From contig CAKOQC010000001.1 in the NCBI GenBank assembly GCA_934101175.1, positions 276,882 through 340,881 of the forward strand: a stretch of 64,000 nt of DNA, read 5' to 3'. Position numbers and translations under genes: made by a program. The DNA comes from an uncultured Bacilli bacterium (lineage in GTDB: Bacteria > Bacillota_I > Bacilli_A > RF39 > UBA660). Of this stretch, positions 47,049 through 47,431 are shown in pieces. Position 1 is the first letter of the stretch, and every line of letters starts with the position of its first letter. The notes under the pieces were generated by a model. The model did not search any database and was not told where the DNA came from. It saw only the letters and a program-made list of their open reading frames with translations.

Positions 47049-47212
47049 TATATTGTAGTCTCAACTACCAACGAAGAACGAAACCCGCCGTTGCTGAAGG
47101 CATCGCCATTGAGTCTGTCAAAGTTGAACACGCCGGCATTAGAACCATTATTATAGTTGCCACCGCGACCCAACCATGGGTTATTGGCATTAACAAAGTT
47201 CGCGTTAACGGT
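47049..47212 (-). pseudogene. Orphan, displaced C-terminal cassette of the FGE-domain gene family
   Basis: On the minus strand it reads TVNANFVNANNPWLGRGGNYNNGSNAGVFNFDRLNGDAFSNGGFRSSLVVETTI* directly after an in-frame TAA. It is homologous to the last ~50 codons of copy 1. It is GC-rich, contains 11 Asn codons that are all AAC or AAT, and carries the same 3' flank as copy 1. Confidence 0.6.
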
Positions 47213-47215
47213 TTA

Positions 47216-47431
47216 GTCCCTATATCAATGTTTAAAACATTAATACCATATTTTTTTGAAACCCCTCGTGTCACTTTTGTATTCACCAAAAATGACACTT
47301 TTTTAACCAAAACTCACCAGGTTCATTTTTGCAAAAAAAGAGGCAAAAATGAACCATCTTGTATCGTTATGTTGTCTTTATTCCTTATTTTCCTGCCCTA
47401 TTTAAGATTACCTTTTTACAGAGCAAGTCGC
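47216..47431. other. GC-rich 216 bp spacer with two perfect or near-perfect hairpins, separating the copy 2 C-terminus from the orphan cassette
   Basis: The first hairpin is ggttcatttttgc-aaaaaaagag-gcaaaaatgaacc (13 bp perfect stem). The second is gtgtcacttttg...aaaaatgacac. There is no homology to the copy 1 locus. Several spurious ORFs in the track overlap it. Confidence 0.5.

Follow-up and report, generated by a model that had tools for sequence, protein, structure and literature searches.

In diversity-generating retroelements (DGRs), an RNA that spans a template repeat (TR) and the adjoining Sp region is reverse-transcribed by a reverse transcriptase (RT) and Avd, errors arise opposite the adenines of TR, and the cDNA replaces a variable repeat (VR) in the target gene. 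The DGRs that contain a gene for a small MutS-like protein with a MutS-domain-I (MSL) correspond to architecture D of Wu et al. (2018; PMC5758913). The target-site element described for DGRs is a GC-rich hairpin of 7-10 bp with a 4-nt GRNA loop, located 4-34 bp downstream of VR (PMC3240598), and structured RNA motifs have been described next to RT genes, among them RT-10, which lies between TR and RT in BPP-1 and has been proposed to act in priming (Weinberg et al., 2017; PMC5737381). A DGR remnant is also known: at all3226 of Nostoc PCC 7120, TR-VR homology remains with no RT gene or pseudogene nearby (Vallota-Eastman et al., 2020; PMC7517822), which the authors explain by removal of the diversification machinery after dispersal (PMC7517822). 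Here we analyse a stretch of 64,000 nucleotides from an uncultured Bacilli bacterium (RF39, UBA660; assembly GCA_934101175.1, contig CAKOQC010000001.1, positions 276,882 to 340,881; hereafter the window), in which a region downstream of a gene called copy 2 is probably the remnant of a chromosomal DGR of the MSL-containing type whose enzymes have been deleted. We thus regard it as a decayed example of a known system and not as a toxin-style exchange of protein tips.

The GC content of the window is 26.1% (0.234 in non-coding DNA). Two of its genes, copy 1 and copy 2, are paralogs with a DNA identity of 76-90%; each ends in a module of which a third version, the orphan, stands alone downstream of copy 2. 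The features on which the argument rests are named here as we read them:

47432..49294, minus strand: copy 2, the DGR target gene (620 aa, P0001; open reading frame (ORF) 47432-49309, ATG at 49294)
47438..47598, minus strand: VR, at the 3' terminus of copy 2 (recognised by nhmmer with the module profile; GC 0.53, A fraction 0.19)
47216..47431, minus strand: VR-TR spacer of 216 nt, homologous to the spacers of the complete DGRs L095 and L032
47057..47213, minus strand: orphan module, the putative TR, now without RT (nhmmer, E=1e-41)
46887..47062, minus strand: TR-adjacent structured RNA (Sp region, RT-14-like), copy A
46874..46906, minus strand: terminator-like hairpin with a T-run at the end of Sp, the same as between Sp and MSL in L095, L031 and L090
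46859..46869, minus strand: remnant of the ribosome binding site (RBS) and first bases of the MutS-like gene, at the deletion junction (alignment of 47442-46830 with L095)
28512..30368, minus strand: copy 1, paralogous target gene (ORF)
28509..28665, minus strand: module at the end of copy 1, which passes straight into the TR-type flank (nhmmer)
28336..28516, minus strand: TR-adjacent RNA (RT-14-like), copy B (nhmmer), followed by a terminator-like hairpin down to ~28314

Past the stop codon of copy 2 come the 216-nt spacer (47216-47431), an in-frame TAA, the 54-codon orphan (47049-47215), whose translation up to its stop is TVNANFVNANNPWLGRGGNYNNGSNAGVFNFDRLNGDAFSNGGFRSSLVVETTI, and a flank of ~196 nt. 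This flank (47061-46866) is 96.5% identical over ~196-200 nt to positions 28513-28314, which directly adjoin copy 1. A preliminary description of the region had already recognised the succession of copy 2, spacer, in-frame stop, 54-codon orphan and shared flank, and all of its structural statements hold, as does its view of a locus of C-terminal variation that carries a non-expressed spare copy of the tip.

The identity of these parts is given by complete relatives. Scanning metagenomes with the family alignment yielded 80 loci (a scan of a genome collection with the exact pattern CGGNTTTCGTTCTTCGTTGGTRG was too strict and returned only an unrelated match in Aquimarina), and at several loci a DGR-type RT (GIPIGNYTSQ...YMDD) is encoded 1-2 kb downstream of the target gene. 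Locus L023, which is flanked by housekeeping genes, presents the order target, VR (11944-12088), spacer of ~180 nt, TR (12270-12414), MutS_I protein (131 aa), bAvd (PF22296, E=1.5e-20) and RVT_1 (E=1.5e-17), and the same order with MSL, bAvd and RVT_1 is found at L094/L095, which were reached via MSL. These complete DGRs occupy other loci, glyA-obg in L023 and a ytxH-ireB-ruvX neighbourhood in L094. From 47442 to 46859, the window is continuous with L095 through the motif that follows VR (GGAGCGTAAGCGACTT), three hairpins, TR, a region of ~150 nt and the terminator-like hairpin, and the homology ends ~11 nt into the RBS/ATG of the MutS-like gene. The window cassette is therefore best explained as a DGR from which MSL, Avd and RT have been deleted. 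Immediately beyond, a convergent DUF6020 gene ends at 46840, with no gene between it and the orphan.

The same comparison bears on the model of the preliminary description, according to which a block made of a new C-terminal module and its spacer had been inserted into the gene and had displaced the old tip, as in Rhs/CdiA loci. The resemblance is superficial: an expressed tip is followed by an orphan tip, and alternative tips occur between strains. However, an identical layout, with the same spacer and hairpins, stands upstream of MSL-bAvd-RT at loci with adenine-only mismatches, so that it represents an ancestral DGR cassette kept in relatives, and the orphan is rich in Asn codons like a TR. 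Moreover, the encoded protein is probably a secreted, FGE-sulfatase-like one; the likeness to Rhs/CdiA is unsupported because neither copy contains a toxin-type Pfam domain and no immunity-like gene follows the orphan. Insertion with displacement is thus extremely improbable. Because the VR-spacer-orphan order is kept in relatives together with MutS-like, bAvd and RT genes, and because mismatches there are adenine-specific (L095, L023, L032, L056), the orphan is most simply a template repeat and not a displaced tip.

The composition of the modules agrees with this assignment. The orphan and the tips of copy 1 and copy 2 have a GC content of 0.48-0.53 and provide the sole 141-nt windows with GC >= 0.48 in the 64 kb; adenine makes up 0.19-0.23 of their coding strand vs 0.40 of the gene body, and their GC richness may reflect avoidance of adenine at scaffold codons in a genome of 26% GC. 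They form a three-copy repeat family (D7, nhmmer), in which VR and TR are 381 nt apart from start to start, vs 326-362 nt in L023/L032. Ten of the 54 codons of the orphan are AAY (Asn), its position and its 3' junction GAGACTACAAT are the same as those of the TRs of L095, L032, L056 and L023, and the junction motif GACTACAAT is common to the orphan and all TRs. An Asn-rich template, an adenine-poor scaffold and a putative domain of the FGE-sulfatase type together constitute a TR/VR signature of DGRs.

The mismatches between these repeats are enriched at TR adenines and not confined to them. The VR of copy 2 differs from the orphan at 16 TR adenines and 27 other bases, with three gap columns (a 3-nt indel), and the module of copy 1 at 16 adenines and 17 other bases. 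For copy 1, half of the TR adenines (16/32) vs 17/109 of the other bases are changed (Fisher p=2e-4; for copy 2, p=0.009), and we read this over-representation of adenines as a historical signature. Loci with the adenine-only pattern have TR/VR mismatches, at adenines and at other bases respectively, of 23 and 2 (L095), 18 and 3 (L023), 19 and 2 (L056), 20 and 5 (L032) and 26 and 4 (L042). Among the loci compared, no TR from elsewhere explains the VRs of the window by adenine-only changes, the best ones leaving at least 17 non-A mismatches. Since one homing event would erase all non-adenine differences, the VR and the orphan appear uncoupled. Among the relatives, two RT genes look interrupted: in L032 (2797-3444) a stop comes soon after YMDD, although TR and VR still present the adenine-only pattern (20 vs 5), and in L071 (2529-3563) the gene is split into two ORFs. 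Either recent inactivation or assembly error could be the cause.

The flank shared by the orphan and copy 1 resembles a known RNA. The Rfam family RT-14 (RF02921) matches copy A at 46906-47045 (35.1 bits, E=0.007; positions 1-144, the full model) and copy B at 28356-28495 (40.1 bits, E=5e-4, full model), and it matches the regions between TR and MSL in L032 and L023 over its full length with 42.3 and 43.8 bits. All these scores (35-44 bits) are under the gathering score of 48.1, with E-values of 1e-4 to 7e-3 in searches of short regions, and a search of the whole window against Rfam at gathering thresholds returned nothing. The window contains exactly two RT-14-like copies, neither of which adjoins an RT gene; in L023, L032 and L095 the homologous element does lie next to one. 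Alignment of ten Sp regions revealed the invariant blocks GACTACAAT, TTATCGTAGAG and GTGAGTA.YAAAATG.TGAAAATG, as well as compensatory pairs in two hairpins. The RT-14 matches, the equivalent position in relatives, and the invariant blocks with their compensatory pairs identify the shared flank as the TR-adjacent RNA of a DGR. The preliminary description had considered the two hairpins of the spacer as possible priming sites; by analogy with the described RT motifs, the flank is more likely to be the priming element.

The enzymes themselves are absent from the window. No YxDD-type motif in an RT context occurs anywhere in the 64 kb, and tblastn searches of the 64 kb with MSL, Avd and RT gave nothing, the best match (E=0.002) falling inside a methionine gamma-lyase gene. 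Neither RT nor Avd is thus present in the cassette or its 64-kb surroundings, whereas RT is encoded at L023, L036, L094 and L095, and Avd in the complete relatives. A search for the RT family returned 6542 matches, and none of the best 120 is on the contig of the window. Given that no engine is encoded in the 64 kb and that TR/VR mismatches also fall outside adenines, the system has most likely lost its activity.

Related loci represent different stages of decay:

L090/L091, at a third paralog locus in the species group: VR is retained along with the spacer, TR, Sp and MSL, Avd and RT being absent; mismatches fall on 27 adenines and 18 other bases
L031, which shares the mraZ neighbourhood of copy 1: TR with an internal deletion, followed by Sp and by MSL shortened to a 90-aa stump
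L087: TR reduced to its first 27 nt
L086, 80% ortholog of copy 2, likewise beside DUF6020: TR and the greater part of Sp missing
L088, L089, L092 and L093, same locus as copy 2: only 82-83 nt between VR and DUF6020

TR is therefore dispensable and repeatedly lost, as it is partly or wholly deleted in relatives at the same locus. The lone MSL of L090 (6419-6775) and L091 (4221-4577) has 118 aa and an altered C-terminus vs the 127-aa relatives, belongs to a 98% cluster of 29 members and seems to persist. In L087 (12135-12410), the TR cut at 27 nt adjoins a sequence that by eye resembles a T-box leader and precedes a tyrosyl-tRNA synthetase gene. At the locus of copy 2, the distance from VR to DUF6020 ranges from 83 nt (5849-5931 in L088 and L092) to 591 nt (46841-47431 in the window), and the target diverges far more between strains (77-80% protein identity) than the proteins encoded beside it, since RNase J, RecD2 and DUF6020 each share a 90% cluster with their counterparts in related strains; for these reasons the locus is a hotspot of recombination and deletion.

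The comparison of strains suggested by the preliminary description did reveal an alternative tip at the junction. The near-identical strain L002 has an orphan and a flank that are 100% identical to those of the window, with only a ~270-nt patch around VR reduced to 72% identity. Because this patch extends outside the TR homology, ~55 nt upstream of it and ~60 nt into the spacer, the tip of L002 was imported by recombination and did not arise by adenine mutagenesis; no donor was found among the loci compared, the best match (81%) being L087. Within clusters 3, 5 and 6 of near-identical proteins, the VRs are invariant and the N-termini vary.

Copy 1 shows another outcome. Its 3' junction TAGACTACAAT is of the TR type and leads at once into the Sp RNA, without the VR-type motif; the 5' part of its module differs from the orphan at adenine positions, and the 3' part retains the TR-like run GGC AAT GCC AAC AAC AAC. 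The same VR/TR fusion is found at L071, beside a broken MSL, Avd and the RT split into two ORFs. From the junction and this parallel case, copy 1 looks like a derived state, a VR×TR recombinant.

Such products, and the exchange of tips between strains by recombination, could also be expected if the orphan were a silent donor from which sequence passes into the expressed genes by gene conversion without RT, in a manner similar to pilS/pilE antigenic variation: the VR and the orphan are direct repeats 381 nt apart that share identical blocks of 12-20 nt, and copy 1 and L071 resemble VR×TR recombination products. Yet the patch of L002 does not derive from the orphan (72% to the window allele, at best 81% to any compared locus), recombination between direct repeats deletes the donor and so does not allow its reuse, and there is no multi-cassette silent family, with only three modules in the window. 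We consider a silent donor very unlikely.

The history of a deleted DGR could thus be as follows. The ancestral cassette would have had the order of the complete relatives, in which the target gene and its VR are followed in turn by a ~200-nt spacer that contains three hairpins, by TR, an Sp region of ~150 nt, the terminator-like hairpin, MSL, bAvd and RT. Homing in such a cassette rewrites the last ~50 codons of a secreted FGE-sulfatase/C-type-lectin-like protein. At copy 2, this order is preserved up to the RBS and the start of MSL, and MSL-Avd-RT are gone, with a junction near 46859. At copy 1, VR and TR would have recombined as direct repeats; the spacer would thereby have been lost, and the hybrid tip would have come to adjoin Sp. 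The current differences between strains in the C-termini would reflect ordinary homologous recombination of tips once diversified by the DGR.

Several observations weigh against this history, or against parts of it. At 96.5%, the identity between the two Sp copies exceeds that between the gene bodies, and TR and both Sp regions are intact at all positions conserved in active relatives; recent loss or gene conversion fits these data, and continued use fits them as well. The VR×TR origin of copy 1 is deduced from its junction and L071, and the putative C-terminal fold (FGE-sulfatase/C-type-lectin-like) from weak Pfam matches. Finally, the part of the genome inspected is 64 kb of a contig of ~380 kb, and an RT acting in trans from elsewhere in it, while unlikely, would fit the intact elements. 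In that case the cassette would still be active, RT-Avd(-MSL) at a paralog locus or in a prophage using the TR-Sp RNA of the orphan in trans on copy 2 and perhaps on copy 1. In favour of such activity, the sequence is intact in TR and Sp as well as in the VR-proximal motif and the 3' TR/VR homology (GGNTTTCGTTCTTCGTTGGT), related gut Bacilli carry the RT family in great abundance (6542 matches), and relatives such as L023 and L094 carry complete DGRs at other loci. On the other side, 17-27 non-A mismatches and an indel persist that a single homing event would reset, and the two sole alleles of copy 2 are distinguished by a recombination patch extending beyond VR and not by changes at adenine sites. 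Three clusters show no variation of VR across strains, sister strains have deleted TR at this locus, and RT is missing from three paralog loci of the species group. Ongoing activity is accordingly improbable, and a DGR remnant deprived of its enzymes is the explanation that we retain.

The region between VR and TR contains several additional elements that may act in cis:

47420..47440, minus strand: VR-proximal motif GGAGCGTAAGCGACTTGCTCT, overlapping the stop codon, present after VR in most family loci
47320..47355, minus strand: hairpin 1 (arms 47320-47332/47343-47355), perfect 13-bp stem, 10-nt loop CTCTTTTTTT (coding strand)
47268..47298, minus strand: hairpin 2 (arms 47268-47279/47287-47298), 12-bp stem with one mismatch, 7-nt loop
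47223..47245, minus strand: hairpin 3 (11 bp), directly upstream of TR

The motif GGAGCGTAAGCGACTTGCTCT occupies the site where complete DGRs carry the target-site hairpin; in L023-type loci, this site is taken by the GC hairpin GTGATGCGAAGCATCAC (GTGATGC-GAA-GCATCAC, with a GAA loop). The motif has a weak predicted stem of 4-6 bp with G-U pairs and a 9-11 nt loop, and so departs from the rule of a 7-10 bp stem with a 4-nt GRNA loop (PMC3240598). At the TR-less loci L007 (11960-11985), L009, L010, L011, L013 and L017, the VR-proximal motif recurs as GGAGC[G/T]AAGCGAC just past hairpin 1; the window lacks this second copy.

The spacer is a repeated module, as the preliminary description had proposed to check: it recurs at many loci and genomes, including, besides the complete DGRs, the remnants L031, L056, L015, L086, L087 and L090. 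Its supposedly unusual GC richness amounts to a mild enrichment (0.324 vs 0.261 for the window, 88th percentile of 216-nt windows), equal to the adjacent gene bodies (0.32). The predicted RNA is strongly folded (z = -5.0 vs shuffles, with 0/200 shuffles as good). Both hairpins of the preliminary description are present, the second with a 12-bp stem containing one mismatch, and a third of 11 bp can be added. It was also right that they are not plain terminators: no U-run follows either main hairpin in the window, and we rejected hairpins 1 and 2 as intrinsic terminators since there is none in any lineage.

Hairpin 1 occurs at 24 places, in 14 distinct sequences, among the loci compared (the window, L005, L007-L017, L021-L025, L031, L032, L036, L056, L086, L087, L090 and L095), also 3' of VRs at loci that lack TR (none within 10 kb) and RT. 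Neither the loop CTCT[T/C]TTTTT nor the closing TTTGC/GCAAA varies, and compensatory changes maintain 13-15 pairs in five stem variants; the hairpin has no match in Rfam. Its location 76 nt past the stop codon, its A/T-rich stem and its 10-nt loop distinguish it from the canonical target hairpin with GC stem and GRNA loop. We interpret it as a cis element associated with the 3' end of the target gene, either part of target-site recognition or a 3' structure of the mRNA. On the plus strand (47301-47357), the loop of hairpin 1 reads AAAGAGG and is followed 6 nt on by an ATG that opens an 18-codon ORF (MNHLVSLCCLYSLFSCPI), probably not a gene, given the poor conservation of its region from locus to locus.

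Hairpins 2 and 3 are lineage-specific. Hairpin 2 is kept in L086, L087, L090, L015, L031 and L095, and other hairpins take its place in L056 and L032. Between the two lies the conserved TATGGTATTAAT, which may be the -10 box of a TR transcript. In a consensus scan, a promoter-like match (GTGACA-18-TATGGT, 47274-47245, minus strand) is no better than expected by chance.

The protein encoded by copy 2 (P0001, with an identical protein on a 379-kb ENA contig) is composed of an N-terminal signal or anchor and a putative C-terminal FGE-sulfatase-like domain. The Pfam FGE-sulfatase match of copy 2 (E=0.0017) is under the curated cut-off and that of copy 1 is also weak; in the family as a whole, 17 of 24 members match, with a best E-value of 7.8e-10. 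A profile search against the PDB returned no sequence match for the target protein, and an AlphaFold model based on an alignment of 24 sequences has a mean pLDDT of 45.8, falling below 50 from residue 339 on. The N-terminus (49200-49294; family consensus ...IIGGTLAYWSW...) presumably resembles a SipW/TasA-type signal peptide. Within 90% clusters, the most variable part is formed by the first 25 residues (11-18 variable columns) and the C-terminal tip is invariant. The C-terminus of copy 1 (...GFRSSLVA) is common to cluster 6 (P0014/P0180) and invariant in 12 members.

Other members of the family have unusual structures. The 975-aa protein P0082 of L004 contains two VR-type module-like segments, one internal (11580-11727) and one terminal (12771-12916), which suggests a tandem duplication of the variable domain. 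The short called genes P0124 (77 aa, 82 contigs) and P0125 (91 aa, 35 contigs), on contigs of up to 956 kb, were considered as TR-encoded ORFs and rejected, since both correspond to pieces from the middle of family genes; they resemble a truncated pseudogene form of the target-gene family that is widespread.

A DGR origin accounts for the GC-rich islands in a genome of 26% GC, for the Asn-rich orphan and for a near-identical flank at two loci. The loci then line up from the complete cassette to MSL only, TR-Sp only, truncated TR and nothing, and VR×TR fusions branch off to the side. This series shows how a DGR is dismantled once the variable protein has become fixed, while tip variation can go on by plain recombination. 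Such RT-less remnants are easily missed because surveys of DGRs usually start from the RT gene. Hairpin 1, with its invariant loop, and the RT-14-like RNA are candidate cis elements of the MSL-type class. It is a more speculative and unlikely proposal, taken as a whole, that RT-less TR-Sp units serve as dormant templates in trans for RT-Avd-MSL encoded elsewhere or transferred, and that hairpin 1 constitutes, in the MSL-type DGRs of gut Bacilli, a target-site or RNA element that is sequence-specific and has not been described before.

Compared with the DGR of BPP-1 (mtd VR, TR, avd, brt), the window shares a TR/VR pair of ~140-150 nt with VR at the 3' end of a gene of the ligand-binding type, AAY (Asn) codons of TR that mark the variable positions, a conserved element past VR and a structured RNA by TR. 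It differs by the lack of RT and Avd, by mismatches beyond adenines, by a TR placed directly downstream of VR and before the accessory genes, and by a VR-proximal element that does not follow the GC-stem/GRNA-loop rule (PMC3240598). Architecture D is represented by L023 and L094/L095, which carry the small MutS-domain-I protein, bAvd and RT; of this set, the window keeps ~11 nt at the start of MSL, and L090 keeps MSL alone. RT-14 (RF02921; Weinberg et al., 2017; PMC5737381) is matched over its full length at both flanks and in relatives, by divergent versions that score below 48.1 and, in the window, have no adjacent RT. The orphan tips of Rhs/CdiA loci share with copy 2 the succession of an expressed tip and an unexpressed spare tip, but in the window no toxin/immunity pair was detected and no pre-toxin motif is evident, and by homology the spare tip is an RT template. 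A parallel for the state of the locus is all3226, likewise a paralog of DGR variable proteins with an RT-less TR-VR remnant. That case belongs to another phylum and another target family, whereas the window keeps the Sp RNA, and here a graded series of decay and a VR/TR fusion can be traced across strains.

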